Shown here: piece by piece, positions 9,080 to 38,762 of the stretch
Position numbering within the stretch: the stretch's first letter is position 1
How the letters are laid out: every line of letters begins with the position of its first letter
DNA from: a virus
Lineage: Duplodnaviria > Caudoviricetes
Length of the DNA stretch: 64,000 bases
Reading direction: 5' to 3' (one strand)
Virus record (IMG/VR): IMGVR_UViG_3300037067_003053
Coordinates: 57,381 to 121,380 of that record
Position numbers and translations under genes: made by a program
The notes under the pieces: model-generated
The model's database searches: none
What the model was told of the DNA's origin: nothing
Seen by the model: the letters and a program-made list of their open reading frames with translations, nothing else

Positions 9080-9352
9080 TTATTCCATCTCCTCTAAATT
9101 TTGTTTTTCTATTAATTCCAAATTAATTCTTATATGCGAACATTTACATTTTAAACAATCTGCAACAGATTTAATTTTTCTGTCCATTAAATAATAACAC
9201 GGTTCTATAGACGTATGTTCAAACACTCTTTCTTGTAGACACCAAAATGGTTGCGAACACACCTCAAGAACTCTATCCCACGTTCTAATATTATTTTTAC
9301 TTAAAAGAATTTTAAATTCTTCGTCACTCATTTCGTGATAATATGGCTTCAT
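9080..9352 (-). CDS. Cys-rich small protein with C-terminal EEME tag (paralogue of 9349-9618)
   Basis: PFWC...C...CLKC; ends INLELIEKQNLEEME. Confidence 0.75.
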   Translation of the reverse strand: MKPYYHEMSDEEFKILLSKNNIRTWDRVLEVCSQPFWCLQERVFEHTSIEPCYYLMDRKIKSVADCLKCKCSHIRINLELIEKQNLEEME

Positions 9353-9618
9353 ATCATTTCCTCTAAATCTTGACTTTTTATTAAATCTTTACCAAGAGAA
9401 TTTAAATAACCGCAATGTCTACAATTAAATATATTTTTTATTGAAAGGGTTTTTAATCCCAAGCAACCATGATATTCTCCCAATGGAAATCTTTTTCCAC
9501 ACCAAGATGGTGGTAAAAAATATTTTGACATATTAATTTTTTTTCTTTTACTATTCAAATAATCATATATTATTTTTTCATAATCATCAAATGATAAATC
9601 TGTAATTAACTTTTTCAT
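9349..9618 (-). CDS. Cys-rich small protein with variant C-terminal tag
   Basis: PSWC...C...CRHC; ends DLIKSQDLEEMI. Confidence 0.75.
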   Translation of the reverse strand: MKKLITDLSFDDYEKIIYDYLNSKRKKINMSKYFLPPSWCGKRFPLGEYHGCLGLKTLSIKNIFNCRHCGYLNSLGKDLIKSQDLEEMI

Positions 9619-11090
9619 TCATGACCTATAAATTTTATTTCAAACTGGTTTTGTTTTTTATAAATATTTAATCTTTGTAATGAATGCCTAAGCAAAATAT
9701 TTGGTTTTTTCTTATTATTAATAATTATATAACCATCATCATCAAAAAAATCAACCAACGTTGCACTTATTTTTCCATCTGTTTTTCTAACCACTCTACC
9801 CAGTTTTTGTAATAAATCTCTACCAAAATCACCGCCTTTACCCGCAGATGCCAATATTATTGCATCCATTTCTGGCAAATCAACGCCTTCTTTTATCACA
9901 GTAGATATAATAATTTTAGTATCTTTATTTATAAAACGTTTTAATATATCTTTTCTTTCTAAGGAGGTATCTTCCCCATATAAAGATTCCGCTTTATTTC
10001 CCAATAATTTTAATAAAATATCACCATGTTCTTCTATTCTATTTACTATAATTAAAGTTCTTTTACCTTCACTTGCTAATTTATTTGCAAATTCAATTAT
10101 TTTTTTATTTCGCTTTTCATTTTTTAAAATATTTTCTTTATAAGATTCTTCCCATGTAATTAAATCCGTTTCTATTTTATTTTTAGAAATAAAAACTGTT
10201 AATTTTGACAAATATCCATTTTCCATTAACCAAGATAAAGTTCTTTCAAATATTATCTTACCTGTAACGCCTTCCAATAATTCTCTTGAATATGAATTTT
10301 CTTTTCCCGGAGTTGCGGTTAAACCAATTCTTATTTTTGCATTGATTGTTTTCATAGCAATCAAATACCATGTATTACCCGGAAAATGTGTTTTACTATT
10401 TGGTTTTTGAATTCTATGCGCTTCATCTAAAAATAATACTTCTGTTGTTTCTAACAATTCTTTTATTTCTTGTGTCTCCAATCGCGCCCAAATCGTTTGA
10501 GACGTTGCAACGTTAATAAGTGATACTTTGTATTCACCATCTCCAATATAACCCACTCGGTCTTTACCAAACCATTCACAGAAGTTTTTATAAGTCTGGT
10601 TTAACAATAATAAACTTGGTACAATATAAAGAGTTTTTCTACCATAGAAATCTATTATTTTTCCTGCAATAACGCTCTTACCACCACCAGTTCCAATTGA
10701 AATTATACCTCTTATCTTTTTATCTGTTGTAACAATGTTCACACACTCATTTTGATATTCCCTTAATTCAAATGGATATTTTCCATTTATTTTTGATATA
10801 TCATTGTATTCTATACGATAATCTGTAATAAGATAATAAATATCTAATTTTTTTAAAGTTGGAATTATCTTTGAAAACAACCAACCCGTTGGAAAAGAAT
10901 TATATCGTTTATTGAAATAACATATTTTTCTTTCCTTTACTTTTATTTGTTTTGTTTTATCTCTATAAAAATATGTTTGAGATAAAGTACAAATATCATA
11001 AATTTCAATTGGAATATCTCCAATTAAATATGAATATGTATTATGAATTTGAATTTCTAACATTAGTCTTTGAAAAACTCGGATAACCAA
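9615..11090 (-). CDS. Superfamily 2 DNA helicase (UvsW/Rad25-like)
   Basis: LREYQ, GTGGGKS, DEAH, GLTATP, EGVDLP, QKLGRVVR. Confidence 0.92.
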   Translation of the reverse strand: MVIRVFQRLMLEIQIHNTYSYLIGDIPIEIYDICTLSQTYFYRDKTKQIKVKERKICYFNKRYNSFPTGWLFSKIIPTLKKLDIYYLITDYRIEYNDISKINGKYPFELREYQNECVNIVTTDKKIRGIISIGTGGGKSVIAGKIIDFYGRKTLYIVPSLLLLNQTYKNFCEWFGKDRVGYIGDGEYKVSLINVATSQTIWARLETQEIKELLETTEVLFLDEAHRIQKPNSKTHFPGNTWYLIAMKTINAKIRIGLTATPGKENSYSRELLEGVTGKIIFERTLSWLMENGYLSKLTVFISKNKIETDLITWEESYKENILKNEKRNKKIIEFANKLASEGKRTLIIVNRIEEHGDILLKLLGNKAESLYGEDTSLERKDILKRFINKDTKIIISTVIKEGVDLPEMDAIILASAGKGGDFGRDLLQKLGRVVRKTDGKISATLVDFFDDDGYIIINNKKKPNILLRHSLQRLNIYKKQNQFEIKFIGHE

Positions 11091-11477
11091 TCTAAAAATT
11101 TTTCAGAAATTTTAAATAAAACTAAAGCCCCGAAAAATATACTAATAAATAAAAAAATACCCCAAAATAAACTTATTTCTATTATCATTTTTTCTCCTTA
11201 TTATTTATCAAAAAACCCAAGTGTATCTAAAATAGTTATTAACAAATATATTAATAAATAGTTAAAAACGGATATTTTTTCCATAAAAATATATGATGGT
11301 ATTAATGTGATTATAATTGATATTATCAAAACCCGTATATAATGACTTTTCATTTTTTAAACCCTTCTTTGAAGAAAGATTTAAATAAATTTTTAAATAA
11401 ATCAATAATTACCAAAACTCCCATTAAAAAACATATACTATTAATCATAAATAAAATATAAATTAATATTTCTTTTT

Positions 11478-11885
11478 TCATTTTTTCCTCTTAATTAAAT
11501 ATCCATTTACTTTTCCAAATTTTAAAGCATCTATAACATTCTTTGTCCATATATCCGCTTTATTTGTATGGCGTTTGTGCATAGTATCGGTAACAACAAA
11601 ATCTTTTATTAAAATAACCGTTATTGTATCACCATAATTAATTTTATTTAAAATAATATCACGAGATAATGCAATTGTTTCATTATTTGGTTTTGTTCCA
11701 TTTGCAGTTATAAACGGAGTATTATCTGTTTGATTTATTTTACTATTATATGCACTAATAATAACATCATAAAAAGTGTTTTTATTTAAAAAAGTAATGT
11801 ATTCTTTATTTGATTGATAAAAAACAAAAATATAAATTATAAACACAATATTTAATAATATAGATATTTTATATCGTATTTTCAT
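11478..11885 (-). CDS. 3D-domain protein (cell-wall lytic transglycosylase-like) with N-terminal membrane anchor
   Basis: SAYNS..NQTD.TPFITANG, IALSRD, DTM...ADIW. Confidence 0.8.
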   Translation of the reverse strand: MKIRYKISILLNIVFIIYIFVFYQSNKEYITFLNKNTFYDVIISAYNSKINQTDNTPFITANGTKPNNETIALSRDIILNKINYGDTITVILIKDFVVTDTMHKRHTNKADIWTKNVIDALKFGKVNGYLIKRKK

Positions 11886-11890
11886 TATAT

Positions 11891-12187
11891 TTATTCCATT
11901 TCCTCTATATCTTGAAGTCTTTCCAATTCCTCATTTATCTTAATCTTTTTTCTTGGTTTTTTTCTTCCTGCACAAAGAAGATATATATTTTTCCAATATT
12001 CGTGACCCTGAGGAGTACAAGCCCATGTCATCAATTCATTTAAATTTGATGACCGATCACGAAATGAAAAACTTTTATCTATCAATGATCGGGCATTTAA
12101 TTCTTTTAAATTTTCAACCGCATCATATTTTTCACGAACGGTTAAACCGTCACAATATGTAATTGAATCAATAATATCTTGCAACAT
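11891..12187 (-). CDS. Small protein with C-terminal EEME tag
   Basis: WACTPQGHEYW motif; ends INEELERLQDIEEME. Confidence 0.8.
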   Translation of the reverse strand: MLQDIIDSITYCDGLTVREKYDAVENLKELNARSLIDKSFSFRDRSSNLNELMTWACTPQGHEYWKNIYLLCAGRKKPRKKIKINEELERLQDIEEME

Positions 12188-12190
12188 AAT

Positions 12191-12508
12191 TTATTCCATC
12201 TCTTCTATATCTTGAAGTTTCTTTAATTTCTCGTTTATTTTTGGGGATTCATCTGATTTTATACCCCACATAAATGGGTTATAAAAAACATAATTTCCTA
12301 TATCAGGACCTTCATTATTAATTGTAGATGTAACAACATATTTTCCTTGTTCATTATCATATTCTAAATTATAAGTCGGCAAATTATCTTTTTCTTTCTG
12401 TTGATTCACATTATTTTCTTCATTATAATCATCTAATCTCCATTCGTCCTGAACGGAAGGTCCCACTGTACCATCATAAGATAAACAAGTCCAATCAATA
12501 TTGCTCAT
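12191..12508 (-). CDS. Small acidic protein with C-terminal EEME tag
   Basis: Ends INEKLKKLQDIEEME; GGAG RBS. Confidence 0.8.
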   Translation of the reverse strand: MSNIDWTCLSYDGTVGPSVQDEWRLDDYNEENNVNQQKEKDNLPTYNLEYDNEQGKYVVTSTINNEGPDIGNYVFYNPFMWGIKSDESPKINEKLKKLQDIEEME

Positions 12509-12516
12509 ATATTCTC

Positions 12517-13881
12517 CTAAAATATATCCTCAGATAAAGCAAGTGTTTTATTATCCCACATCAATTCTATTATTCCTTCGGGTCCGTTTTTTTGCTTTAA
12601 AATACTTATTTCCATCGAATCATCTGCAACTTCTTTTTTGGCCAAATGTTCTCTAAATACTGATAATATTAACCACGAATCTTCTTCAAAAGAACCACAT
12701 CCTTTTAAATCTTCTAAAGTAGGCCGTTTATCTGCCCTTGTTTCTGTTTCTCTTCTTGCTTGGACTATATTGCATATATGTACATCCGCCTCTTCTGCTA
12801 ATTTTTCAACAAAAGATAAACATTTACTAATCATGTTTACTTTATAAGAAGTCTCATTTCTTATTTCTTCAATCCTATCAAATAAATCAATATAAACAAT
12901 ATCTAATCCAAACTTCATTTTTGTATCTAAAACAAATTTACGAATTTCTGGTAAAGAAACCGTACCAGAATGAAAATGAATATTCCAAGAATTAATTTCA
13001 TCGGAGGTCTGTTTTATTTTATTTAAAATTTCTTTTCTTTCTGTTATTATTTTACCATCTACAAATTTAGCCCAATCTTTTATTTTAAGAATTTCTATTA
13101 ACGGAATACCTGTTATAATAGATGTTAATCTATCCATTTCAATATCAAAACCCTGTTCTGGAGTAATATGTAAAACACCAAAATTATTTCTGCATTGATT
13201 AACTGTAAAATTTGCTTTTAATGCGCTTTTACCATGTCGAGTTCTACCAAATATAGTAGAGGTGTGTGTAGGAGAATATCCTAAAGATAATTTTGAATCC
13301 AATGAATTGAAATAAGTTTTAACAAATTTACCAGAAAGTCTTTCAATTAAACCAGACTTTCTTCTTTCAGAAATATTTCCAGAAGAAACTATTTTTTTAT
13401 ATTCTTTATCTTTATCTAAATTTAAAAATTCTGTTAAACCAAGGTTATTTATTTCTTCGGAATTAGCAGATGGTTCGTATGCTTTTTCTATTATTGAATT
13501 ACCAATTAATATCTGTCTTCTTAAATGATATTTTTCTTCTAAAATTTTTATATAATATTGGATGTTGGCTGCAGAAATTGTGGTTTCATATAAACCTGTA
13601 ATAAAATATGCTCCTCCAATCTTTTCTAATATTTTCTCTTTTTTAAGTTCCTCTATTAATAACCCTTCTTCGACAGGTATACCAGATTCATGTAAATGAA
13701 CTTCTGCATTAAAAATCAATCTATTATTTTCTTTATAAAAAAATTCGGGTTTTATTTTAGATATAAACATAGTACAATATTCATAATCTTTTAAAATACT
13801 ACCTATTACTCGTGTTTCAGATTCATCTGAATGTGGTTGAACTTTTACATATTCAATATTAGCCAAATATAATTTCCTCAA
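12517..13881 (-). CDS. dnaB: Replicative DNA helicase DnaB
   Basis: N-terminal PHS.ESE..VIGS, IGGAYF; Walker A GRTRHGKS; IVYID; Q.RR...DKRPTLEDLKGCGSFEED; KQKNGP. Confidence 0.93.
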   Translation of the reverse strand: MRKLYLANIEYVKVQPHSDESETRVIGSILKDYEYCTMFISKIKPEFFYKENNRLIFNAEVHLHESGIPVEEGLLIEELKKEKILEKIGGAYFITGLYETTISAANIQYYIKILEEKYHLRRQILIGNSIIEKAYEPSANSEEINNLGLTEFLNLDKDKEYKKIVSSGNISERRKSGLIERLSGKFVKTYFNSLDSKLSLGYSPTHTSTIFGRTRHGKSALKANFTVNQCRNNFGVLHITPEQGFDIEMDRLTSIITGIPLIEILKIKDWAKFVDGKIITERKEILNKIKQTSDEINSWNIHFHSGTVSLPEIRKFVLDTKMKFGLDIVYIDLFDRIEEIRNETSYKVNMISKCLSFVEKLAEEADVHICNIVQARRETETRADKRPTLEDLKGCGSFEEDSWLILSVFREHLAKKEVADDSMEISILKQKNGPEGIIELMWDNKTLALSEDIF

Positions 13882-14374
13882 TATCTAATATCAATGAACC
13901 AAAACTAAAAGCGTTGTATTTTTTTAATAGTTCCTCATTTAGATTTCCATTACTAATTAAAATTAATGGTGTTTTTTTCAAAATCAAATTAGAAATAAAT
14001 GTTGAAATATACCCCATTTCAAATGAATTGGATGCTTCATCAAATCCGTCAAAAACGATTATACTTCCTTCTTTCCATGTTTCTATTTGTTTGTTTAAGG
14101 AAAAAGAAGGAGATTGTATACAAACTTCAACAAATTGAAATTTTTGAATATAATAAGGCGGATATTTTGATTTATTTTTTGTTATAAAATCTATTGCAAA
14201 GGACAACGCAACATATTTTGCAACCTTTCTCATTATTAATGAACTACATTTAAAATGTAATGGTTTTGGATTATCTAAATAACTTGATAAAATAGGATAA
14301 TTTTTATTATAATCCAATTTTTTAAAATCTGGAAACCCACTATATTGTAATAAATATTCTACGCGAGAAATCAT
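13859..14374 (-). CDS. Degenerate DnaC/IstB-like helicase loader
   Basis: Directly upstream of dnaB; Walker-B-like IIVFDGFDE and sensor-like PLILISN; no clear Walker A. Confidence 0.45.
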   Translation of the reverse strand: MISRVEYLLQYSGFPDFKKLDYNKNYPILSSYLDNPKPLHFKCSSLIMRKVAKYVALSFAIDFITKNKSKYPPYYIQKFQFVEVCIQSPSFSLNKQIETWKEGSIIVFDGFDEASNSFEMGYISTFISNLILKKTPLILISNGNLNEELLKKYNAFSFGSLILDIEEIIFG

Positions 14375-14379
14375 TATAT

Positions 14380-14691
14380 TTATTCCATTTCCTCTATATC
14401 CTGAAGTTTTTTTAATTTTTCATTTATTTTTAGTTTTTTATTTGATTTTAAATCTATAACACCATATTCTTTAATATGTCTATTAATATTTTCCCAATAT
14501 ATACCTCCTTATGGAGTATGTTCCCATATCATAAGGAAAAGCAAATTATCCGTAGTTTCATCAAAGCATAATCCTCTATTATCTATTTTAGATAGTTCTT
14601 CTATTTCTCTTAAATGATTAACCGCCACTATTTTGTCTAATCCAGATAAACCATCACAATTATAAATAGAATTAATAATATTTTGTAACAT
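14380..14691 (-). pseudogene. Paralogue of 11891-12187 interrupted by an in-frame TAA at 14509-14511; carries the EEME tag
   Basis: Reads WEHTP*GGIYWENIN...KINEKLKKLQDIEEME in one frame; the paralogue has Gln (TPQG) at the stop position. Confidence 0.85.
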
Positions 14692-14694
14692 ATG

Positions 14695-14949
14695 TTATTC
14701 CATTTCTTCTATGTCTTGTTTTTTCATAAGTTCTTTATTAATTTGAGGAGTAATATTGTCATCATTACAAATATTATAAATTTTATTTCCAAATGACCAT
14801 TTAAAAAACTCAAGATCGGGATCAACTTGAAAAAACCCGTTTTCTACACTATAAATAACTGTTTTATAATTTTCATGTGAAATTATAACGTCTTTTTTAT
14901 TATAAAATTCGCTATCTCGAACATCACGATAATCTTTAACCATAATCAA
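14695..14949 (-). CDS. Small protein with C-terminal EEME tag
   Basis: Ends INKELMKKQDIEEME. Confidence 0.78.
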   Translation of the reverse strand: MIMVKDYRDVRDSEFYNKKDVIISHENYKTVIYSVENGFFQVDPDLEFFKWSFGNKIYNICNDDNITPQINKELMKKQDIEEME

Positions 14950-15622
14950 TTTACTTTTTCTTGTACCAATTTTTAATTCAATCCGATTATTTATTTCTAT
15001 TTTCTTTCATGGAATTCTGATTATTTGATAATAATTTATTATGTTTAACCGCACGAACAGCTCTTTTTATTGTTTTTATATTTATTGTTCCTTTTTTGGA
15101 TGCAGCATGAACGACACGTTTTTTTAAACGATTATCTTTATATTCAAAATTGTCACAAAAACACGTAAATGCATTTACCACAGGATACCATGCTTCGACC
15201 GGTTCTCCATCCAACCAATGTAACCAATGCATAACACCCATGCTCGGATTTCTACATTCGCCTTCATCTTCATTATATTCATCAACGTGTTTATAGTGTA
15301 AACATTCATTACATCGTTTAGATAATGTATCCATATAATTTCCTTTAATTTTAGATTAGATTGACTTAATGTGTAATTTTTTTCCACAGTAAAGACACTC
15401 ATCCCATTCATAACTTTCTCCATAAGGATGGGTATTAAATTCTTTTTTATGATTAGTTTGTCTGTGTTTGCATGTTTTTCTTGTTATTTCGCCAATTGCA
15501 TCTAACATTTCTTCAACCTCATCAAAACCAAAGTACATTCCTGTTTTAATTCTTTGGCATTCAATTAATTTTTGTTTTAATTCATTTGTTATGTACATAT
15601 ATCTCCTTTATTTAAAAATCTT

Positions 15623-15707
15623 TGGGCTACCGGAAGGATTTGAACCTTCACTCTTCCTATTCAGTTTTCACCGAAATCGGAACTGCTAATCATTGCACCA
15701 CGGTAGC
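15623..15707 (-). ncRNA. tRNA-like RNA with elongated anticodon arm (tRNA-Arg(UCG)-like with ~10-nt insert)
   Basis: Acceptor GCTACCG/CGGTAGC; T arm GAAGG-TTCAAAT-CCTTC; anticodon region TTCC-GAT-TTCGGT-GAAA-ACTGAA-TA-GGAA. Confidence 0.7.
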
Positions 15708-15713
15708 TTTTTT

Positions 15714-15851
15714 CTGCGCGGGTCGGGCTTGAGTACCGACTATGATGACCCCTGATAACTCGTTGCTTTATCATTCGTGCCCCTATCCCTGTTGGCCAGC
15801 GAAGGGTATCATTCCTAACGGCTAAACTGTGTCCATCCACGTCGCCGCGCA
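15714..15851 (-). ncRNA. tRNA-like RNA (~138 nt) with multi-hairpin insert
   Basis: Acceptor TGCGCGG/CCGCGCA; D-like GTG-GATGGA-CAC; T-like GTCGG...CCGAC; internal hairpins CCCT/AGGG and TGATAA/TTATCA. Confidence 0.6.
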
Positions 15852-15921
15852 TATTATTCCCGCCTTTTTGACTTTTGAAATTGAACAGTAATTAACATTG
15901 ACGGGAAATTTCAAAAAGCAA

Positions 15922-15962
15922 TATAATATACAAAATATTAATTCAAAAGTCAAGATAAATCT
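15922..15962 (-). promoter_or_regulatory. sigma70-type promoter copy 2, upstream of the tRNA-like RNA pair
   Basis: AGATTTATC-TTGACT-17nt-TATATT. Confidence 0.82.
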
Positions 15963-16292: not shown

Positions 16293-17057
16293 CTACTTAA
16301 AATACGTTGTTAGTAAATCAATTAATAATTCATTTACTGTTTTATAATTTGGTTTATCTGGTAAAACAGATTTATCTTTTATATCTTCCATATCTTTAAA
16401 CAATCTATTTGCTTCATTTTTTACTTGTTCTAATGTCCACAAACCTTTTTTAATTTCAATTAATTTACTTTTATTTTTTCTAAAAACATTTACTTGTCCC
16501 GTTTTTAGAAATTCTATTCCCATTTCCAAAAGTCTAATTAAATGGGAAGCATTAGAACAATCAAATCCCCATTTATAAATTAATTCTTTTCTTTTTTCGC
16601 CCATATATCCTTGTGTACTACCATGTTCCATTCTTTTTAATTGAGAATATGCATATCCACAAAAAGAATTATATGCCAATTTAGAACTAAATAAATCTCG
16701 ATTTTTAATTAATTCATCACCAATGAGTGTTTTTCTTAAATATAAATCTTCTGGCAACCAAAGCAACCCAAGAACATTTGGATTATTTTTTAATAAAAGA
16801 AATACAAATTTTCTTATGTCATATAACACAACATCCCAATATTTTTTTTGTAAAACCAGAGTATTTCTACTTCCAAATTCTTTTAATCCAAAGAAATAAT
16901 CAATTGGCGGAACAATAATTCCCATAACATCTTTATCGTCAATATAATTTGGAATATATGTTCCATGAGAAATAGACCCAACATATCCTAAAATAATAGA
17001 ATGGTTAAATAAATCAAAATCTTTATTTTCTGTTAATAATTCATTTAAAATTCTCAT
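16293..17057 (-). CDS. Pol-beta-superfamily nucleotidyltransferase (RlaP/YcgL-like)
   Basis: GSISHGT...DDKDVMGI, KNNPNVL, GYAYSQLKR, HLIRLL. Confidence 0.82.
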   Translation of the reverse strand: MRILNELLTENKDFDLFNHSIILGYVGSISHGTYIPNYIDDKDVMGIIVPPIDYFFGLKEFGSRNTLVLQKKYWDVVLYDIRKFVFLLLKNNPNVLGLLWLPEDLYLRKTLIGDELIKNRDLFSSKLAYNSFCGYAYSQLKRMEHGSTQGYMGEKRKELIYKWGFDCSNASHLIRLLEMGIEFLKTGQVNVFRKNKSKLIEIKKGLWTLEQVKNEANRLFKDMEDIKDKSVLPDKPNYKTVNELLIDLLTTYFK

Positions 17058-20823: not shown

Positions 20824-21909
20824 TTATTCTCCATATTTTAATAAAAAATCAGTATTAATTACCTTAAAAGATATTTGTTTTTCTTGATTTCTACAAACAA
20901 TACCTTCTCTATAAATATCAGAAATAATAGATTTTCCATGTGCATATTCCACCATTTCGGGAATTGTGGATTTTAATTTTGAATATTCAAGAAATGGTAC
21001 TCTTTTTAATCCAAGTTGTGAAAGAACACCGCCATATTGACCAAATGAAATTATTTTTTTATCGGGATAAATAAGATTGAAAAAATAAACATCATATCCT
21101 TTTATATTATATTTATTTTTTTGTATACCTTCTCCAATTATTTCCCCCTGTAATGCCACATAATCATATTTACCAATTAATACTTCTAATTTATTTTTTA
21201 AATCATATTGTTTTGCTATCGTCCAGTAAGAACTATTATCCAGTTTAGATAAATGAATTCTTCGACTGCATACACCAAAAATATATTTTTTACCAAATAA
21301 AGTTTTCTTTTTTATTAAAAACCATGTACCCGATTGACCATCGAGTTTTTCAGTAAAAGTAAAAATAGTATCTTTTTCTCTTTCACAAATATTTGGAAAT
21401 AATTGTATTCTATCTTCATCCGTTTTTGGAATAAACTTTGGGAATTCTCCTTTGTTTGAATGAAGTAAAAATAATTTTCTATACCAAGAATACCTTTTCA
21501 TAAATTTGAAAATTTTATTTTGTTTTCTATTTTCAATATCTTTTAATAATTTTGCTTCAAGTTCTCCTTGTGGATCATATTTTTTAATATTTAAAATTTT
21601 TGTTACATCATCGTTTTCATTCCATTTTTTATTTGGCAAAATAGATAACGGAAATGCAATACCTTGCGAAATTTGTCCACGAAGTTTTATAGTTTTAATT
21701 CTAAATTTTTTATCTTTTAAAAATTCAAATTCTGGTTTATCTGGTAATATAGAATCTACTTCACAATATACACAATAATCACCTTCATTAAATTCACCCT
21801 TTTTAACAACTAAAGACCAACCCAATATTGTTGCTTTTTCAATAGAATCGGCATTTTCAATTGGTTCGAGTTTAATAATTTTTTGTATTGATGCTAATTT
21901 TCGTTCCAT
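20824..21909 (-). CDS. RNA ligase, DRB0094 (Rnl2/Rnl5-like) family
   Basis: MERKLASIQ N-domain, KLRGQISQG, FIPKTDEDRIQ, TEKLDG, QGEIIG.GIQKN.Y, REGIV, FKVIN. Confidence 0.93.
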   Translation of the reverse strand: MERKLASIQKIIKLEPIENADSIEKATILGWSLVVKKGEFNEGDYCVYCEVDSILPDKPEFEFLKDKKFRIKTIKLRGQISQGIAFPLSILPNKKWNENDDVTKILNIKKYDPQGELEAKLLKDIENRKQNKIFKFMKRYSWYRKLFLLHSNKGEFPKFIPKTDEDRIQLFPNICEREKDTIFTFTEKLDGQSGTWFLIKKKTLFGKKYIFGVCSRRIHLSKLDNSSYWTIAKQYDLKNKLEVLIGKYDYVALQGEIIGEGIQKNKYNIKGYDVYFFNLIYPDKKIISFGQYGGVLSQLGLKRVPFLEYSKLKSTIPEMVEYAHGKSIISDIYREGIVCRNQEKQISFKVINTDFLLKYGE

Positions 21910-21911
21910 AT

Positions 21912-22889
21912 TTATTCATCCTTTTTATTTAAAAAATATTCAACTTTATTATTGTGGTCTATACAAACATCTAAACAATTTTTTCTACAAATAGGGTCAT
22001 TATAAGTATTGGTTTTTTCAAACCATTTTTTTCGTTCTTTTTTAATTTCAGTTAATGTTTTATTATATATGGTACCAATTGATTTTCCTTGTTCTCTCAT
22101 ATATATAACACAAGGAAAATGTTTCCCATGCAAAATAGCCATATCATCTTTAACCAAATGGCATTTTTTACAATCTTTTTCTGTTATTCCCCTAACATGT
22201 CTTTTATTTTTAATATTATTTAATCTATATGATAAAATTCCATAGTCTGTTTTTATATCATCAATATTTAAATAATGATTAGATTGCGAAGATGGAATTA
22301 TTCTAATATCTGAAACACCCAAAGATGTTGCATAAGAAATTATATTTTTTAAATCTGAATTATTTTGTTTATCTAAAACTACTCCAACAGTAACATATGT
22401 TAATTTAGATAGTTCTTTAATGATATTTGTGATATGTTCAAAATTAGCATTTGTACCAGCCATTATATTTGCCATTGAACTACAACAAGCATCTAATGAA
22501 ATCGAAAAATCATTAACACCCAATTTATATAAATATTTATAAAATTCCAGTGATGCACTTCCATTTGTAGATAATGCTATATGCTCAATACAAGAAAAAC
22601 TTTTGGTATATTTTACTAATTCGACTAAATCTTTCCATATTGTGGGTTCTCCGCCAGAAAATCGTATATTATGAATATTTCCACTAACCCATATATCAAT
22701 AATTTCTTTTGCTTGTTTTAATGTTAAATCTCCTTGCAATTCTTTTTTAATACCGCGACAATATAAACATTTAAAATTACATCTGTCGGTTAAAATAAGT
22801 TCACATCTTTGTAAATCACTTTTCCATGAAACATTTTTTGCTCTTTTATCGGATAATGAATAAAAGCCAATTTCTTCTAATTTTTGCAT
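21912..22889 (-). CDS. Radical SAM protein
   Basis: CNFKCLYC, FSGGEP, STNG, C-terminal Cys cluster. Confidence 0.9.
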   Translation of the reverse strand: MQKLEEIGFYSLSDKRAKNVSWKSDLQRCELILTDRCNFKCLYCRGIKKELQGDLTLKQAKEIIDIWVSGNIHNIRFSGGEPTIWKDLVELVKYTKSFSCIEHIALSTNGSASLEFYKYLYKLGVNDFSISLDACCSSMANIMAGTNANFEHITNIIKELSKLTYVTVGVVLDKQNNSDLKNIISYATSLGVSDIRIIPSSQSNHYLNIDDIKTDYGILSYRLNNIKNKRHVRGITEKDCKKCHLVKDDMAILHGKHFPCVIYMREQGKSIGTIYNKTLTEIKKERKKWFEKTNTYNDPICRKNCLDVCIDHNNKVEYFLNKKDE

Positions 22890-23184
22890 TTACATACCTT
22901 TATATTTGAGATTTAAAACAGATTTCAAATTCTTCTTTTGTTAAATGAGTCCAAAAATGAATTTCATTAAACCAAAACATAACAGCAAAAGTATTATTTT
23001 TTGGTCTAAAAAATAATTTATCCCCCTCTATATAACCTATGGCATATTTTTTAATGATTTCTCTATTTTTTTCTATAGAATTTGTTCTTGTTTCAATGCC
23101 AAATACTGATAAACTACCGGATTCCCATCTTTCTTTTGTAAAAAATTCACTTGAGAACCGTTCTAATTTATTCATCCTTTTTAT

Positions 23185-29671: not shown

Positions 29672-30412
29672 TTATTTTGACTCAAAAAAGTTTTTAATTA
29701 GAGGAAAATCATTTAATTCTTCAGGATGCCACTGTACTGCCAAAATATTTTTAAATTTAATTGCTTCTACAAGAAATTCATTTTTATCATAGGGCGCAAT
29801 GGCAATTATTTTTGTATCAGAATATGTTTTTGGTATTATAAACCCCTGATGATGCATTGAATTTACAGCAATTCTTTTTATATGTGATTTATCACAAGAA
29901 TTATTGAAATTAAAAATAATTTTTGTTAAATCTGATTTTTCAAAATTAATATTATTTATACTTGAATATAATTCTTTTTCATCAATAAATATAAAATGAA
30001 TGGGTATATTTCTATCCACATCTGTATTTGTTGGATGATTTTTTAAATCCTGAATATATTCTCCTTTTAATTCTCCTAATGCAAATAATTCAAGACAAAT
30101 GAGTTGAAATCCTCTACAGATTCCAAATATCTTTTTATCATTTTTTAAAAAATATTCTATTAAATTTCTTTCAAATGAATCTCTTGTTGGTGAAACACCT
30201 GAAGAATCAATATTATTAAAACCATAATAAATAGGATCAATATCTATTCCGCCAGATAATAATAATCCATCACATTCTTTTAATAAATCCTCTATAAATT
30301 TATTTTGTGGAATGAATACCGGTGTTAATCCCGCACCAATTAAATAATCTATGTATGTGGTATTTATAAAATTTTGTGTTTTAGACCCACATAATGGCAC
30401 TGCTATTTTCAT
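29672..30412 (-). CDS. Class I glutamine amidotransferase / peptidase C26 (gamma-glutamyl hydrolase-like)
   Basis: GGIDIDP, RD.FE, GICRGFQ, VNSMHHQ, VQWHPE. Confidence 0.92.
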   Translation of the reverse strand: MKIAVPLCGSKTQNFINTTYIDYLIGAGLTPVFIPQNKFIEDLLKECDGLLLSGGIDIDPIYYGFNNIDSSGVSPTRDSFERNLIEYFLKNDKKIFGICRGFQLICLELFALGELKGEYIQDLKNHPTNTDVDRNIPIHFIFIDEKELYSSINNINFEKSDLTKIIFNFNNSCDKSHIKRIAVNSMHHQGFIIPKTYSDTKIIAIAPYDKNEFLVEAIKFKNILAVQWHPEELNDFPLIKNFFESK

Positions 30413-31044
30413 GATTGCCCCCTTATCTTTTTAAATTTTTCATATTCATTTTTAAATATAGAATATCCTTTTCCAAAAGCTCGTATTCCTATATCGCCCA
30501 TATCAAAATCATACTTATCATATTCTTGTGTACGAAATGTTTTATTACCAAGAATATATTTATAATTTTTTAAAATTAATTCAGCATTTTCAAAATCATA
30601 TTTATAAGTCGAACTAATTTCGCCGGTAGTATCGTGTCTTATAACCGATAAAAATTCCGATAACATAATTGTTGTATTAGTCCATTTTTTATCTAAAATA
30701 AGATAAAAACAATGTTCAATGATTTCTTTTGAATTATCTTCATAAGAAGAATAAATATTTGTAAATTTTTTTAAAACAGTTTTCTTTAAACCATATTTTG
30801 CTTCTAATTCGCGAACCGTTTTTAAATTTGGTTTATCGCAATAAAATGGAATAATTATAACTATTTTAAATTTTCTGTCCTCGCATTTATTAATAATTTC
30901 ATAGCATAATTCTTCCCTGCAAGTAAAAAAAGCCCAATTTATCACATGCATTAGATTTTTATTTATCTTATCCTTTTCCGCAATTCCAAACCACATTTCT
31001 TCATTTTCAGGATTATCAAAACTATATTTCATTTGTAATTCCAT
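30409..31044 (-). CDS. Hypothetical protein with TCRE motif
   Basis: FFTCREEL; lies within the ligase cluster. Confidence 0.6.
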   Translation of the reverse strand: MELQMKYSFDNPENEEMWFGIAEKDKINKNLMHVINWAFFTCREELCYEIINKCEDRKFKIVIIIPFYCDKPNLKTVRELEAKYGLKKTVLKKFTNIYSSYEDNSKEIIEHCFYLILDKKWTNTTIMLSEFLSVIRHDTTGEISSTYKYDFENAELILKNYKYILGNKTFRTQEYDKYDFDMGDIGIRAFGKGYSIFKNEYEKFKKIRGQS

Positions 31045-31047: not shown

Positions 31048-31323
31048 TTATTCCAATTCCTCTAAATTTTGTTTTTTTATTAATTCTTCGTCATATTTTT
31101 TTAAAACAAAATATGGAAAATAAAAACGATTATATTTACCGTCTTCTAATAAAATTCCAGTATTATAAATGCCGGTTATTTTACAAACCTTTCCAACTAT
31201 TTCATCCATATAAGATGGCCATAAATTTTCCCAACCATTTTCATATTTAAATGCTTTTCTGGTTACAATAACCATATCATTTATTTTTAAACCGCATTTA
31301 TTTTGTTCGCTTAAATAACTCAT
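31048..31323 (-). CDS. Small SH3-like beta protein with C-terminal EELE tag
   Basis: Ends DEELIKKQNLEELE; starts 1 nt after the ATP-grasp stop. Confidence 0.78.
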   Translation of the reverse strand: MSYLSEQNKCGLKINDMVIVTRKAFKYENGWENLWPSYMDEIVGKVCKITGIYNTGILLEDGKYNRFYFPYFVLKKYDEELIKKQNLEELE

Positions 31324-31324
31324 T

Positions 31325-32152
31325 TTATTCTTCTTTTAATACGGGATGATACATATATTTTCTTAATGCTTCATTTGGAACGTCAAATAATATTTTATTA
31401 TTGTTTTCAAAATAATTATCAAATAAATAATCAAAACCATTTGCAAATAATTCTGCGGTATATGAACTATTTATAGATAAGGCGGTATTTATTTCTAATA
31501 AATATGAAATATTATTTTCATCAATTATAATATCTGCACCACCAAAATCTAATCCAACCATATTCATGGCTTGTATTGCCAATAATCCTGATTTTCTTGG
31601 CCAATCTTTCCAACGAATATTTTCAAATGTAGAACCTTGGATATGATTCCATGCAATGGATTCTTTATCTTCTGCTATCTTTTCACTTATAGCCAATATT
31701 CTATTGGACATAATATAAACCCTAATTTCCCTTACTTTTTTAATATATTCAGAAATATAAAATTTATCCAAAGTATTAAACCTTCGTAATTCATCCATTG
31801 TATTAATAAAAAATAAATTAAAACCCCCAAAATGATGAAGAGGTCTAATAATTACTGGAAATTTATCTACCTCATTTCTTTGTGTACAATACCATGTTTT
31901 TGGACAAGATAATTCATTTTCTACACACATTTTTCTAAATTTATATTTATTGGACGCCGTAATAATGGCATCAGATTCATTAATTGTGATTCCTTTACAT
32001 GGGTATTCTTGTACATTTCCAAATCTAACTAAAATATCCGGATTTTTGATTCGTCTGCTACCATTTGAAATAAAAATTTCATTGACTAAATTTTCAGAAA
32101 CACTATTAATGGTTTCTTTAGAAAATCCTCTATTTCTTAAAAATAAAATCAT
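31325..32152 (-). CDS. ATP-grasp ligase (RimK/phiEco32-like)
   Basis: ASNK, FPVIIRP..H.GG, YISEYI...REIRV, WNH..G, GLDFGGADI, LEINTA. Confidence 0.9.
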   Translation of the reverse strand: MILFLRNRGFSKETINSVSENLVNEIFISNGSRRIKNPDILVRFGNVQEYPCKGITINESDAIITASNKYKFRKMCVENELSCPKTWYCTQRNEVDKFPVIIRPLHHFGGFNLFFINTMDELRRFNTLDKFYISEYIKKVREIRVYIMSNRILAISEKIAEDKESIAWNHIQGSTFENIRWKDWPRKSGLLAIQAMNMVGLDFGGADIIIDENNISYLLEINTALSINSSYTAELFANGFDYLFDNYFENNNKILFDVPNEALRKYMYHPVLKEE

Positions 32153-32168
32153 ATAGAATACCTTAATT

Positions 32169-33047: not shown

Positions 33048-33064
33048 TTTACCTCCAAAATATC

Positions 33065-33850: not shown

Positions 33851-34940
33851 TATTTACTCCTTAATTTAATTATTTATTTGATAAATATGTTAGGACAATC
33901 TAAATTTTCCGTCTTTTCTTAATTGATTCCACCAATCAGATGGCATAGAAAGACTTTGAATAGATTCTCGTTTTATTTCTTTTATATCTCCCATTTTACC
34001 ACAACATTTACACATTTCTTGATTATAAGAAACTTTATCTGCCGCAGACCTTATACCTTTGCCCGGCCATTTATATTGACATATAGAAACTATATTATAT
34101 GTATGACCAAATCTTTGACATTTTTGATCCGGATTATACCATTCTTTAAATATTCTAATTATTTTATTAAAAAAGTGAATCTTTTTTGTCTTTAGTACAT
34201 TATTCATAATTTACTCCTTAGATAATTCTTTACCAATTAGGAAATTTTAATTGTTCTTGCCACATTTCAACAGTACAACATTTTTTACTAACTAATTCTC
34301 CAAAACATGTTAAATCCGATCTTATATAAACCTCATTATGTTTTGTAAAACAGTTTATTAATGGATTTGTAATTAAAGATAATGTGCCTTTTTTACTATA
34401 TTCTTTTAAATAATCGCGCAATCTAAATGCAACCATTAAATTACATTTATTATCAAATAATTTATTTTGAGATATTTTTTGCATTTGCCGAATCATTTCA
34501 ATTTTAAAATTAAATATGGTTTTATTAAAGGTTTCATAGTCTTCAATATGGAGAACCCAATAAGTTTCTCCGTTCATTTTTAATTTTAAAAAATTATATC
34601 CTGTCATTATTTAATATTAATTTTTAGTTCAAACATAATTATTTTTTTAATTTTCTCGTGGCTTTTGAGTAATTAAAGAATGTTTCCCATACTTCTATAT
34701 GAAAATCTTTTGGTAATTCTTTAACCATATTTTCTATTGCATGTTTTTGACCTAAAACTTTACAATCAGAATCTTTTGGATTCTGATATGCTGTTCCAAC
34801 CGCCCATGGTTTTTCTTCTGAAACATCTACCATAAATAAATTTGCAGTTGTTTTTCTTACCATTTTATCTCCAAATTTAGCAGGAACCTTTGTCGAATGA
34901 AATTTTAAATACATCATAATTTACTCCTTGTTTGAATTGT

Positions 34941-35471
34941 TTATTTGATAAACTTATTTAAAATATTTTTATAAAATAGAACGTCTGAATCACGTGAAGT
35001 TGAATGAGATATTCCTACTAATTGAATTTTTTTATTTACATATTTTTTATAATATTTAAATTTTATAGATAAATTTATTTTTGCTTGTAATGATTTTTCA
35101 TCATGAAATATAAAATATCTTTGATAAATTTCCTTTTCAACATAATCTTTACAATTAATTGTAAATTTTCTTCCAACCATTACAGTTTTTGCTTCATAAT
35201 CCATCCAAAACTTATTTAAGCAATATTCTATTATAGGAAGACCAAGATAAATTGTTTTACTTATTTTTCTATTTGTTCCAAAATCATAAATCTTACATTT
35301 CATTCCCAATGCTAACCACATAAGTAAATTGTTATCCAAATCGGAAAATAATTTATACCAATTTTTACGTTCAAGTGTGGTTGATTGAATTCTAATAAAA
35401 TTTATTTTATTCTTTGGTATATGCGGTATTTGTTCTATACCGTTTGTAAGATTAATAAAATATTTAACCAT
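34941..35471 (-). CDS. Conserved-looking phage hypothetical protein (FINLTNGIE...FIRIQST)
   Basis: 176-aa ORF with enzyme-like motifs; function unknown. Confidence 0.6.
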   Translation of the reverse strand: MVKYFINLTNGIEQIPHIPKNKINFIRIQSTTLERKNWYKLFSDLDNNLLMWLALGMKCKIYDFGTNRKISKTIYLGLPIIEYCLNKFWMDYEAKTVMVGRKFTINCKDYVEKEIYQRYFIFHDEKSLQAKINLSIKFKYYKKYVNKKIQLVGISHSTSRDSDVLFYKNILNKFIK

Positions 35472-36309
35472 TATTTAATTTCTATTTTATATTTTTTCAT
35501 AATATCATTTATATTTTTTTTAATTCGTATTGAATCTGATTTTTTAATGGTTAAAAAATCATCATATAATCCAAATTTATTTCGTGTCATTTTTGTTAAA
35601 GTGGTTAATTTTGGTTCACTTTCTTCTAAACAAAACTGTTCATTACCAGATTCTCCGGTAAATTTATTTTTATTTGATTTTAATTTCTTAATTATTTTTA
35701 ATCTTGGAAAAACCAATAAAATAGGTGGATTTAATAATCGTTTTATTTCCTCTTTTCTATTAATTTTATGAGAGGTATCTGGATATTTATCTTCTATAAT
35801 AGATTGTAACATTTTACAGCATTCTTTAGATAAATCATGTTGGTTTAGATTATCTCTTTCCTGTTCAACCATTATAACTCTTTTCTAATAATATTAGATT
35901 TTCAAACTCTTTAAGCAACTTTTCTGTTATTTTTCCAGCAAAGATTAAATCACGAATTTCTTCCATTCGTTTTTGAATTTCTTCTAAAGATTTCATATGT
36001 TTACTTTGGTGGCGATAAATCCTTCATTATATCCTTCATTATATCCGTCATTATAGGCCTCTGCAATTACTGCCATAAAGGATATTAATAAATCGTCTTC
36101 CTTGTGTTCAAATGTATCATCCATTTGATTTTTAAGTTTAATTGCAATATTTGCTCTTCTTGCAACTTCTTCAATACTTAATTTCATTTTTATTTCCTTT
36201 TGTTATCAATAATTATAAATAATATTCAAATATAGAATGTTTTATTAAATAAAGAAATAAAATAATAACAAATGTTCCAAATATAGGTAAAAATATTTAT
36301 TCATATTAT

Positions 36310-36576
36310 TTAATATTGACTGGAAAAATATTTACCTCTACGAAATACCTTTGAATTATAAATACATTTTATCCTACAACCAATTATTTTTTCGTAACCT
36401 ATTTCTATGCCAGATATTAGAACATATCTTTTGGCCCTTTCTTCCGGAGTACTATGTGGCATAATTTTATCAATTAAAGCATGGGCTTTATCAATTCCAG
36501 AATCGTCATCACCAAAATTGTAGACCCGCCCTAATAATATGTCTATTAATATCAAATCTGTTTCTTGTCCGAGCAT
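36310..36576 (-). CDS. Hypothetical protein (true start likely 36576)
   Basis: AAGGAAAGGA RBS before ATG at 36576; the longer ORF call overlaps tRNA-Tyr. Confidence 0.6.
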   Translation of the reverse strand: MLGQETDLILIDILLGRVYNFGDDDSGIDKAHALIDKIMPHSTPEERAKRYVLISGIEIGYEKIIGCRIKCIYNSKVFRRGKYFSSQY

Positions 36577-36613
36577 GATATATGTTCCTTTCCTTTTGTT
36601 ATCAATTTCCTTG

Positions 36614-36693
36614 TGCGTTGAAGAGGATTTGAACCTGCTTTGATGATTAAACGGATTTACAGTCCGCTCCCTTACCAATCGGGCTATCAACGC
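36614..36693 (-). tRNA. tRNA-Tyr(GTA)
   Basis: GCGTTGA/TCAACGC acceptor; GCGGA-CT-GTA-AA-TCCGT; long variable region; imperfect T stem. Confidence 0.82.
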
Positions 36694-36698
36694 ATTTT

Positions 36699-36900
36699 GT
36701 TAAAGTCTCGGTATAGAATCAAACTATACATTATTATTTTTTAATAAAAATAATTTGTTAATTTTGTTGTGAATCACTTGGGTATAGCCCAAGAGTTGCT
36801 CAAATAGGAGTAAATCATACAGACATAACCGCTTGGATATAACACAAAAATTAGATTATTTTTAAATAATTTTTCTATCATTGAAATACGAAACTTTAAC
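36699..36900 (-). ncRNA. tRNA-like RNA (~200 nt) with a long hairpin replacing the anticodon loop
   Basis: 12-bp closing stem GTTAAAGTTTCG/CGAGACTTTAAC; D arm TTTC-AATGATA-GAAA; T arm GTATAG-TTTGATT-CTATAC; internal stems AAAAATAAT/ATTATTTTT and CTTGGG/CCCAAG. Confidence 0.65.
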
Positions 36901-37002
36901 ACGAAAAACACACACATAATATCTTTAATTATATAATATTATTTTAGTATATTAAATAATTAAATTTTTAACTCAAATTAAGTTTTTTCACTTTCCACTC
37001 CT

Positions 37003-38469
37003 TTATTGTTCGTTTACCCATTCAATTACTTTATTTTTTATTGTTAATAATAGTTTATCTTCCATTGTGCGAATAGACGCCCAATAAATATAAGGTATTC
37101 CTATATAATATTTATAATTTATTGACAATTTTTCATTTATAAAACCATCAATATCCAAATTATTAAAATATCCATCTGGGCAAGATAAAAATAAAATAAC
37201 AAATGGATTTTTTGATACTACCCCTAAAAGATTTTTATATAAGATTCCTTTTATATTAGAATCAAAGCATCCATCATATTTTATAATTAAATTATTTTCT
37301 TTATATCCATTAACCCAATATTTAAAAATATTATCAGAGTATAGTGTTTCTTTTTTAAACTCTTCTAATATTTTTAAATCATGATCGTTTAATCCACAAT
37401 ATTCTTTATATTCTTCTTTTGTTGGTCTTGACAATGGGTTTGTATAATAAACAATTTTAATATTCTTAATATAAAAATTATCTGCTAAATTTTTAGCAAT
37501 TTTGATCCATAAATAATAATATTGTGGTTTTTTATAAATCATAGCAGGAGGTGTTCTATATTCAAATCCCCAGTTTTTTCTTTCTGAAGATGATAATCTT
37601 CTATATTGACCTCTTTTTTCTCCACTTTTATCTATTGTATAAAATCCAATATAAAAATCCAATATTTTAACAAATTCATCATTACGTCCCACATTTCCAA
37701 AATGTATATGACCCCCAAGAGCAACATAATTACCGGCCACAGATATACCCTGTACTTGTTTTGATGCTTCTGTTATTAATCCCTTTAAATTTTTAACGGC
37801 ACTTTTTATAGTTGTGGCATATTTTGGTCTAAATTCTCCGGTACATGCTGCCCCATCACATCCAATTTCTCTATCAGAACCAGTATTAAATACTGTGTTG
37901 GCCGGAACAAATTCATCATTTTCAATAATTTCAAATTCCGGATCAGCACCAATCGTAATTACTTTCTTTATTTTAATACGTTTTTTATTTTTTGAAAAAG
38001 CATCGTTCATAAAACTAATAAGAAATTCTACACCATCGACACTATGGGTATAATCTTTTAAAAACAATATATTTTTTACACCAAAAAATTCTTTGAAATA
38101 ATAACCCAATTTAATTGTAAAATTCTCTCCTCTACTAAGTATATAGCAAGTATTAAAAGATTGATTATTATTTTGAATATATCTACCTAAAGCATTAAAA
38201 ATTGGTCCCTCATCAAGACAAGATGAGGAAATAAGTTTATCATATTTTTTAATTAAATTTTCATCATTTAAAATAATTTCTTTATAATCTAATTTTTTTA
38301 ATAAATCAGGTGAAATACATTTATCTGAATATAAATATATTGTATTATTTTTAAATATAACAGTGATGCCTGAATGAGCATAAATATTTTCAAATCCATA
38401 GTATACTGGAGGATTATTAATTTTATCTAAAAATATGGATGTGGATTCTGTGGGATATATATCTTTCAT
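37003..38469 (-). CDS. phiEco32-like COOH-NH2 ligase (copy 2) with N- and C-terminal extensions
   Basis: TIGADPEFE, IGCDG...GEFRP, GGHIHFG, GFEYRTPP. Confidence 0.85.
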   Translation of the reverse strand: MKDIYPTESTSIFLDKINNPPVYYGFENIYAHSGITVIFKNNTIYLYSDKCISPDLLKKLDYKEIILNDENLIKKYDKLISSSCLDEGPIFNALGRYIQNNNQSFNTCYILSRGENFTIKLGYYFKEFFGVKNILFLKDYTHSVDGVEFLISFMNDAFSKNKKRIKIKKVITIGADPEFEIIENDEFVPANTVFNTGSDREIGCDGAACTGEFRPKYATTIKSAVKNLKGLITEASKQVQGISVAGNYVALGGHIHFGNVGRNDEFVKILDFYIGFYTIDKSGEKRGQYRRLSSSERKNWGFEYRTPPAMIYKKPQYYYLWIKIAKNLADNFYIKNIKIVYYTNPLSRPTKEEYKEYCGLNDHDLKILEEFKKETLYSDNIFKYWVNGYKENNLIIKYDGCFDSNIKGILYKNLLGVVSKNPFVILFLSCPDGYFNNLDIDGFINEKLSINYKYYIGIPYIYWASIRTMEDKLLLTIKNKVIEWVNEQ

Positions 38470-38762
38470 TCCATTTCCTCTATATCTTGAAGTTTTTTTA
38501 ATTCATCATTTATAAATGTGTACATTGGAATATTTTTTAATAATGCTCCATATTTTGAAGCCAAACAAATATGTTTTGTTGTAGTTTGTGATATTCTATC
38601 TTTTCCAATATAAGGAAAAACAAACTTTATTCCCCACGCCGTATATCCTATTTTTAATTTAAAAGAATATAAATTTTTACCATCGGTGGAAATATTTTTA
38701 CCAATTGCGGGAACATTGGATGACCAACATACCACAACCAAATTATTATCTAATGTTTTCAT
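38466..38762 (-). CDS. Small protein with C-terminal EEME tag, overlapping the ligase 2 start (ATGA)
   Basis: Ends INDELKKLQDIEEME. Confidence 0.8.
   Translation of the reverse strand: MKTLDNNLVVVCWSSNVPAIGKNISTDGKNLYSFKLKIGYTAWGIKFVFPYIGKDRISQTTTKHICLASKYGALLKNIPMYTFINDELKKLQDIEEME

Follow-up and report, generated by a model that had tools for sequence, protein, structure and literature searches.

The window analysed here, 64,000 nucleotides (nt) long, is the 3' half of a 121,380-bp viral contig of IMG/VR (record IMGVR_UViG_3300037067_003053; about 25% GC, completeness estimate 64%), and the minus strand holds nearly all of its genes between positions 1 and 46,000. Eight small minus-strand open reading frames (ORFs) between positions 9080 and 38762 end in a common acidic tail of 12 to 15 residues with the consensus INEELKKLQDIEEME-stop, as a check of the translations confirmed. 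A preliminary description of this DNA, made from the letters alone, had listed these eight ORFs and proposed that their tail is a handle linked to amide-ligase genes of the same phage. The existence of the tail was corroborated by a pattern scan and by a profile. A degenerate 21-nt pattern for the tail core has eight matches in the window, all on the minus strand and exactly in these ORFs (0.12 expected; none of 100 shuffles reached eight), and in the whole 121,380-bp contig the same eight and no others are found. With a profile of the last 30 residues, the tagged ORFs score 45.6-53.6 bits, compared to 9.0 bits for the next best among the six-frame ORFs of the contig.

The tagged genes and their relatives

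Six of the eight tagged genes lie in the replication module, where they form three two-gene arrays: one past the gene for a superfamily 2 (SF2; ResIII/DEAD) helicase (9615-11090, minus strand), one past the gene for a DnaB-type helicase (12517-13881, minus strand), and one before a 171-amino-acid (aa) gene which overlaps the DnaB gene. The SF2 helicase gene is a core gene followed by a slot for tagged genes, and the DnaB gene is a conserved core gene with such slots on both sides. Genes for a clamp loader (6763-8025) and a beta clamp (3881-4981) are found near the arrays.

The array past the SF2 helicase gene encodes two proteins of one Cys-rich family. The first gene, 9349-9618 (89 aa), has the only tail without a terminal Glu (9352-9396, ending in ...KDLIKSQDLEEMI), and its stop codon overlaps the next ATG; in the second, 9080-9352 (90 aa; tail at 9083-9127, ...INLELIEKQNLEEME), the next ATG is located 1 nt past the stop codon. 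The first gene past DnaB, 12191-12508 (105 aa; tail at 12194-12238, INEKLKKLQDIEEME), has an orphan body, and its neighbour 11891-12187 (98 aa; tail at 11894-11938, INEELERLQDIEEME) belongs to an 'NTPQG..YWE' family with a phrog_16354-like body. In the third array, 14695-14949 (82-84 aa; tail at 14698-14742, INKELMKKQDIEEME, with GAA-GAA and without GAGG) has an orphan body, and 14380-14691 is a paralogue of 11891-12187 with an intact in-frame tail at 14383-14427 and, as noticed before, an internal TAA, which we place at 14509-14511. Since 14380-14691 including the TAA is identical in the two other assemblies covering this region, it is probably a recent pseudogene or the source of a truncated 60-aa product. 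The remaining two tagged genes are 31048-31323 (91 aa; tail at 31051-31095, YDEELIKKQNLEELE) and 38466-38762 (98 aa; tail at 38469-38513, INDELKKLQDIEEME), which are discussed below together with their neighbours.

No cultured phage is close to the phage studied here: among GenBank phages we found no DNA match to window positions 9000-15000, no protein match to 38466-38762, and for DnaB only matches with at most 28% identity. DnaB peptide patterns gave no match among viral contigs, and a homologue search with 11891-12187 matched only this ORF itself. Since the other contigs carrying 11891-12187 are 100% identical, there was no population variation to use. Uncultured relatives were reached via DnaB homologues. 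The nearest one is the 22.4-kb NCBI contig JBINOF010002745.1 (assembly GCA_043955465.1, run SRR22315503; loci L039 and L094), whose DnaB is 88% identical to that of the window and whose other core proteins are 81-91% identical. It harbours six tagged genes, two after DnaB, three after the SF2 helicase and one after an ATP-grasp gene, so that tails from two phages (eight plus six) were available for comparison. The tagged genes in corresponding slots of the two phages belong to different families or are only 33-43% identical, in contrast to the 81-91% of the core genes.

Within the window the tail follows the pattern EL(K/I)x(L/K)Q(D/N)(I/L)EE(M/L)E-stop, and with the related phage included it reads EL(K/I)x(L/K)Q(D/N/E)(I/L/M)EE(M/L)E-COOH, with a net charge of about -4. 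The terminal Glu, which had been reported for seven of the eight window tails, is indeed missing only in 9349, where Ile takes its place; over both phages it is present in 13 of 14 tails, after an invariant EE. Two subtypes can be distinguished: EL(I/M)xKQ(D/N)(I/L)EE(M/L)E (subtype A) on 9080, 9349, 31048 and 14695, and ELKKLQDIEEME (subtype B) on 11891, 12191, 14380 and 38466. Counted back from the C-terminus (-1 is the last residue), hydrophobic residues are regularly placed at -15, -11, -8 or -10, -5 and -2 inside a charged stretch, and a hydrophobic residue is found at -10 or at -8, never at both.

When the tails were removed, the only similar pair was 11891/14380 (46% identity over 69 aa, E 9e-17); for 9080 and 9349, a common homologue in the related phage provides the connection. 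By these comparisons the eight bodies represent six families including two pairs, in agreement with the earlier estimate of about six unrelated families and two paralogue pairs. A Pfam scan of the tagged proteins gave no match, and a PHROGs scan matched only PHROGs of unknown function. The body of 38466 resembles clusters of small viral proteins of 76-105 aa. The cluster that is its best structural look-alike comprises 76 aa and is aligned to residues 4-85 (template modelling score 0.92 for that match), and therefore has no room for the tail. Similarly, the body of 11891 matches a 76-position PHROG profile, the end of which precedes the tail. Judged from these two bodies, the tail is an add-on. 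A model of 38466-38762 made by AlphaFold2 with no alignment was unusable (mean predicted local distance difference test score 37).

Selection on the peptide and exchange of bodies at the tail

For the 14 tails, the pooled ratio of non-synonymous to synonymous differences per site (pN/pS) is 0.38, and for the last seven codons it is 0.16, in contrast to 0.68 and 1.81 obtained from this DNA in its two shifted frames. Between the core genes of the two phages pN/pS is 0.11-0.25, at a pS of 0.39-0.47. Each invariant residue of the tail is encoded by at least two codons: L(-11) by CTT, TTA or TTG, Q(-7) by CAA or CAG, and E(-4) and E(-3) by GAA or GAG. The tail of 31048 and that of its true orthologue in the related phage, L094:1502-1780 (body 64% identical, tail ELIRKQEMEEME), have only 28 of 45 nt in common, yet ELI(K/R)KQ(N/E)(L/M)EE(L/M)E is kept. 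Further, all six body families of the window are fused to the tail in one and the same frame, for which we calculate a chance probability of (1/3)^5 = 0.004. Taken together, this comparison of coding sequences indicates that the tail is kept by purifying selection on the peptide. The synonymous codon differences had already pointed the preliminary description in this direction, and it had proposed a comparison of substitution rates in the tail as a check. Because of the pN/pS values, the variety of codons, the orthologous tails and the fusions in one frame, stronger conservation of the DNA than of the protein, which had been named there as an outcome that would speak against a role of the peptide, is not what we find.

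At the DNA level, however, the tail has additional properties. Window positions 11950-11475 match L039 11789-12262 at 83%, in a block which starts 60 nt before the stop codon, and window positions 9126-8733 match L039 15190-15583 at 87%, in a block which starts 46 nt before the stop codon. Since DNA homology thus resumes at the 5' edge of the tail while the bodies directly upstream are from different families, the tail also is a mosaic junction. The NTPQG family occupies the slot after DnaB in the window and the slot after the SF2 helicase in the related phage. Within the window the subtype-B tails are alike in 39-42 of 45 nt with one exact run of 25 nt, even across 24 kb, and are thus closer to each other than positional orthologues between the phages. 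Copying or gene conversion is the likely cause, and the conservation could in part be only apparent for this reason.

The tail DNA also overlaps the initiation region of the next gene. The next start codon lies 0-5 nt past the stop codon in all eight window tails, as described before, and in 13 of 14 tails over both phages. For comparison, a gap of at most 7 nt is found in 46% of the same-strand gene pairs, which for eight genes gives 0.46^8 = 0.002. The usual ribosome-binding site (RBS) of this genome is AAGGAG, with a distance of 5-8 nt to the start codon. In 9 of 14 tails the sequence GAGGA provides a Shine-Dalgarno core for the next gene, but since its spacing is 7-16 nt instead of the usual 5-8 nt, it is often suboptimal. 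GAG makes up 11% of the Glu codons genome-wide and is nevertheless present at -4 in the same 9 of 14 tails (counts that are not phylogenetically independent), so that a part of the constraint sits on the DNA.

These observations raise the possibility that the tail is nothing but a DNA module, i.e. a 45-nt cassette junction that brings homology for recombination, a stop codon and an RBS and couples the next gene tightly, with the peptide as a functionless passenger. The coincidence of mosaic breakpoints with the tail, the enrichment of GAGGA, the position next to a start codon, the homogenisation of tails within the genome and the retention of the tail past the premature stop in 14380-14691 are all in line with this explanation. 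Even the lack of RNA structure would suit an initiation site: an RNA element was considered and rejected, since no stable or common fold was detected (minimum free energy 0 to -4 kcal/mol in six of eight tails, z about 0). On the other hand, codon periodicity of the substitutions is seen in no frame but the true one, and synonymous changes are found at every invariant residue. Five of the 14 tails lack GAGG. One of them, at L039 11581, has behind it a six-codon remnant of a deleted gene; the next real gene is 34 nt away and possesses an RBS of its own. Out-of-frame fusions would also be viable if only the DNA mattered, because the other two frames mostly meet stop codons inside the tail and would terminate cleanly; nevertheless all independent fusions are in frame. 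In addition, neither of the two tag-bearing genomes contains an intergenic or out-of-frame copy of the tail element. We therefore regard a module acting as DNA only as unlikely. A DNA module that supplies an RBS and shuffles small genes had been mentioned in the preliminary description as a competing idea, and two parts of it hold: the tail is a junction at which bodies are swapped, and it usually supplies the Shine-Dalgarno sequence of the next gene. As an alternative to a functional peptide the idea falls short, since the peptide is under selection too. A role as promoter or terminator was also considered and rejected, with 57 promoter-like sites compared to 57.4 in shuffles, and terminator-like sites at the shuffle level and none at the tails.

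The remnant in L039 (11582-11614) is itself worth describing. It reads MLEDIF-stop, corresponds to the start of an NTPQG-family gene and is located past the first tagged gene downstream of DnaB; it looks like the scar of a cassette replacement. The gene inserted beside it brings its own ribosome-binding site, AAGGGAG.

In summary, the tail is a translated C-terminal module under selection, carried by unrelated small proteins that are exchanged rapidly; it coincides with mosaic junctions and overlaps the initiation region of the next gene.

The amide-ligase cluster and the spread of the tail

The window contains an amide-ligase cluster with a GATase-II-like gene, an Amidoligase_2 gene (PF12224), a Peptidase_C26 gene (gamma-glutamyl-hydrolase-like), a RimK-like ATP-grasp gene (31325-32152, minus strand; PF08443, E 3e-9) and two genes matching PF14395, one of which encodes a phiEco32-like COOH-NH2 ligase type 2 (37003-38469, minus strand; E 1.6e-15). 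As stated in the preliminary description, 31048-31323 starts 1 nt past the ATP-grasp gene, and 38466-38762 overlaps with its stop codon the start of the COOH-NH2 ligase gene 37003-38469. These two are the only tagged genes that touch the cluster.

This arrangement suggested that the tail is a ligation handle, whose C-terminal Glu would be used by ATP-grasp or COOH-NH2 ligases, either for extension as in RimK/S6 or for conjugation to an amine as in Pup/PafA or LysW/LysX. In support of it, 13 of 14 tails have the terminal Glu after the invariant EE, one tagged gene is translationally coupled to the RimK-like ATP-grasp gene, and both the pairing and the tail are kept in the related phage, where the true orthologue of 31048-31323 also lies directly past the ATP-grasp gene. 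The overlap of 38466-38762 with a PF14395 ligase gene and the presence of Peptidase_C26 and Amidoligase_2 in the cluster fit as well. But six of the eight tagged genes are in the replication module, one tail ends in Ile, and the 12-15 conserved residues with their hydrophobic pattern exceed what a terminal-Glu handle needs.

The distribution of the tail is also at odds with this idea. In the more distant relatives L040/L095 (25 kb, DnaB 55% identical) and L043 (DnaB 47% identical) no recurrent tail was found, although L095 has a COOH-NH2 ligase, an ATP-grasp-like gene below the threshold followed by a 65-aa gene, Peptidase_C26 and Amidoligase_2. Three loci of other phages with ATP-grasp homologues likewise contain no tailed gene. 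Cassettes with PF14395 are widespread, whereas the tail was not found elsewhere: scans of IMG/VR, JGI metagenome contigs and GTDB genomes with exact degenerate patterns gave only chance matches (internal, out of frame or in single unrelated proteins), and a profile search of 1.84 billion representative proteins retrieved at E <= 1e-3 only the seven intact proteins of the window, a threshold that the tails of the related phage (about 27 bits) would miss. The tail profile, the use of which had been suggested before, thus picks out the tagged ORFs in the contig and reveals no carriers beyond the window's own among these representatives. On this distribution, the tail is a recent invention of one narrow lineage, and the ligase cluster is older and wider.

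Two observations belong to this comparison. In L095, positions 5547-6508 encode a 251-aa sub-threshold ATP-grasp-like protein followed by the 65-aa gene, in a position which matches the ATP-grasp gene and its tagged neighbour in the window, and which may represent the ancestral, untagged state. Further, in an unrelated phage group with about 48% GC (L032, L034, L035 and L038 of IMG/VR) a large protein ends with ...NWQDMEEME-stop. Only this one family is concerned, its surroundings contain no further tailed genes, and we read this ending as a coincidence.

The proposed link between tail and ligases is thus not borne out by the genomic context: two of eight tagged genes touch a ligase gene, and relatives and other phages have the enzymes without the tail. 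The co-occurrence with ligase/ATP-grasp clusters, which had been suggested as a check, is limited to conservation in one close relative, the tail being absent from L095 and from the three ATP-grasp loci. Co-folding of the ATP-grasp protein (alignment of six rows) with ATP, Mg and its 91-aa tagged neighbour gave a score of 0.00, which speaks neither for nor against binding.

Comparison with the known ligation systems leads to the same assessment. Modifiers of the Pup type have a GG(Q/E) end and a ligase of the PafA/Dop family. In contrast, the tails described here end with EE(M/L)E and have no Gly-Gly, and the ligases found are PF14395 and PF12224 proteins, with no PafA/Dop member. RimK is reported to add up to fifteen Glu residues to the C-terminus of S6 (PMC4431377). 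Like the RimK/S6, LysX/LysW and PafA/Pup systems, the phage genome encodes RimK-like ATP-grasp and glutamine-synthetase-like ligases, the tails end with EE(M/L)E-COOH, and one tagged gene is coupled to the ATP-grasp gene. Unlike in RimK/S6 and LysX/LysW, there is no consistent adjacency, and the C-terminal Glu tail is not conserved together with the enzyme across genomes. Thus, membership of any of these systems fails on context, even though a RimK-like enzyme is present. The phiEco32-type amidoligase cassette, reportedly described by Iyer et al. 2009 (Mol Biosyst 5:1636; reference 16 of PMC4431377), resembles the window cluster in having PF14395 (here twice), PF12224, a RimK-like ATP-grasp gene, Peptidase_C26 and a GATase-II-like gene; this cassette is widespread, whereas the tail is confined to one narrow lineage carrying it.

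Altogether, we consider a ligation handle of any kind improbable, and the more specific proposal that the phage RimK-like ATP-grasp enzyme and/or its COOH-NH2 ligases act, by extension or conjugation, on the C-terminal Glu in a fast-evolving effector set very improbable. If a ligation handle existed, it would amount to phage-encoded protein tagging analogous to pupylation or S6 glutamylation, and the phiEco32-type cassette would at last have a protein substrate. The tagged genes offer a cheap direct test for protein substrates of such ligases.

Some other genes of the window were noted. Positions 20824-23175 and 16293-17057 encode an RNA-repair-like set consisting of an RNA ligase with a PHA02142 OB domain, a radical SAM protein and an RlaP nucleotidyltransferase, and this set is accompanied by eight tRNA genes. 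The related phage has an RtcB gene (L094 9030-10193) without a tblastn match in the window, and the relative with 55% DnaB identity has RtcB elsewhere. A Pfam match to an intein splicing domain, weak and below the threshold (E 0.004), covers residues 109-244 in the N-terminal half of a split large terminase (52779-54317), and a 346-aa protein with an ARPP-1 domain (PF20208, E 2e-28) is encoded at 50312-51352, between tRNA genes and the terminase gene.

A proposed portable docking or address peptide

Based on these observations we suggest, with a probability of roughly 0.5, that the tail acts as a portable C-terminal peptide for docking or addressing, specific to this lineage and recognised by one common partner, and that its DNA doubles as a homology patch for the in-frame capture and shuffling of bodies. 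According to this proposal, the tail is added in frame to small accessory proteins of unrelated families with fast turnover, whose genes occupy the variable slots between conserved core genes. One common partner would read all tagged proteins via the tail, and as a consequence any newly captured body would be treated alike. As such a putative partner one may think of a hub protein of the phage or the host, of a protease, or of a receptor for sorting or packaging. The repeated tail DNA of about 45 nt would allow bodies to be swapped or captured without breaking the downstream gene, and it usually gives a Shine-Dalgarno sequence to the gene starting 0-5 nt further on. As would be expected for a docking motif, one short C-terminal peptide is found on six unrelated body families and is conserved as a peptide.

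Several points weigh against this proposal. Tag-bearing genomes are limited to two. No candidate for the reader emerged, and a search of PDB sequences with the tail profile gave nothing meaningful. The tail is intact downstream of the premature stop in 14380-14691. Last but not least, the copying or gene conversion between subtype-B tails and the constraint on the GAG codon at -4 could explain a part of what we ascribe to the peptide. The genes 13859-14374 and 30409-31044, which are located downstream of tags, were considered as paralogous readers and rejected: the BLASTP E-value of 0.003 was uncorrected, and after correction for composition a match of 23 residues with E 0.012 is left.

The peptide could also act without any reader, as a short acidic helix for self- or mutual association or as a cap determining how soluble or how long-lived such very small proteins are. 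The regular hydrophobic pattern within a charged stretch, with either -10 or -8 hydrophobic, and the small size of all tagged proteins (82-109 aa) are compatible with such a role. However, with two heptads the tail is rather short to form a stable coiled coil, the subtype-A tails have a low helical hydrophobic moment, and the near-invariant Q together with the EE(M/L)E-COOH end looks like a recognition motif and less like a generic cap. For these reasons a reader-independent role appears doubtful to us.

The closest functional analogues of a docking or address peptide would be found in the replisomes of T7 and T4. The acidic C-terminal tails of T7 gp2.5 and gp4 dock on the T7 DNA polymerase, and T4 gp43, gp33 and gp55 bind the clamp gp45 via their C-terminal tails. 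As in these cases, in which one hub reads the peptide, unrelated phage proteins have a short C-terminal peptide of acidic or hydrophobic character in common, and most of its carriers are encoded in the replication module, which also encodes the beta clamp and the clamp loader. There are clear differences, too: the carriers are tiny orphan accessory proteins and not replisome enzymes, the tail also marks recombination junctions, and the motif has no terminal aromatic residue and fits neither QL[SD]LF nor the PCNA-interacting peptide (PIP) consensus. The T7 tails are discussed in 10.1101/2025.03.07.642097 and PMC12593628.

In evolutionary terms, the closest analogue is the PeSL cassettes of T4-type phages, which are mobile, regulatory, intergenic motifs consisting of a promoter and a stem-loop (PMC2839356, PMC4122927). 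Like PeSLs and the boundary sequences of lambdoid phages, the tail element is a short repeat bordering small variable ORFs in hyperplastic regions, at breakpoints of insertion, deletion or replacement between close relatives. Unlike PeSLs, it belongs to the coding sequence, in frame and under selection as a peptide, and it has neither a promoter or terminator signal nor an RNA fold.

Targeting to a protein shell provides a further comparison. Encapsulin cargo-loading peptides and the N-terminal capsid-targeting sequence of T4 internal proteins are short terminal peptides which address unrelated cargo to an HK97-fold shell or scaffold, and the T4 prohead protease cuts at (L/I)-x-E sites. The tail, too, is a short terminal peptide on unrelated proteins, and its (I/L/M)-E-E resembles the (L/I)-x-E sites, although only by analogy. 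In contrast to such cargo, the tagged genes sit with early or replication genes, and no prohead protease of the T4 type was detected in this phage.

C-terminal docking tails common to several proteins are known in phages, and so, separately, is the shuffling of small ORFs by repeats. Here, one 45-nt element would combine both, together with the ribosome-binding site of the next gene. In effect, the tail would be a coding junction, at which a captured body gains a ready-made tail while the expression of downstream genes is not disturbed. The identification of a common reader, should there be one, would reveal the role of this orphan accessory set, which may be host takeover, counter-defence or virion cargo, and would also yield a short transferable tag.

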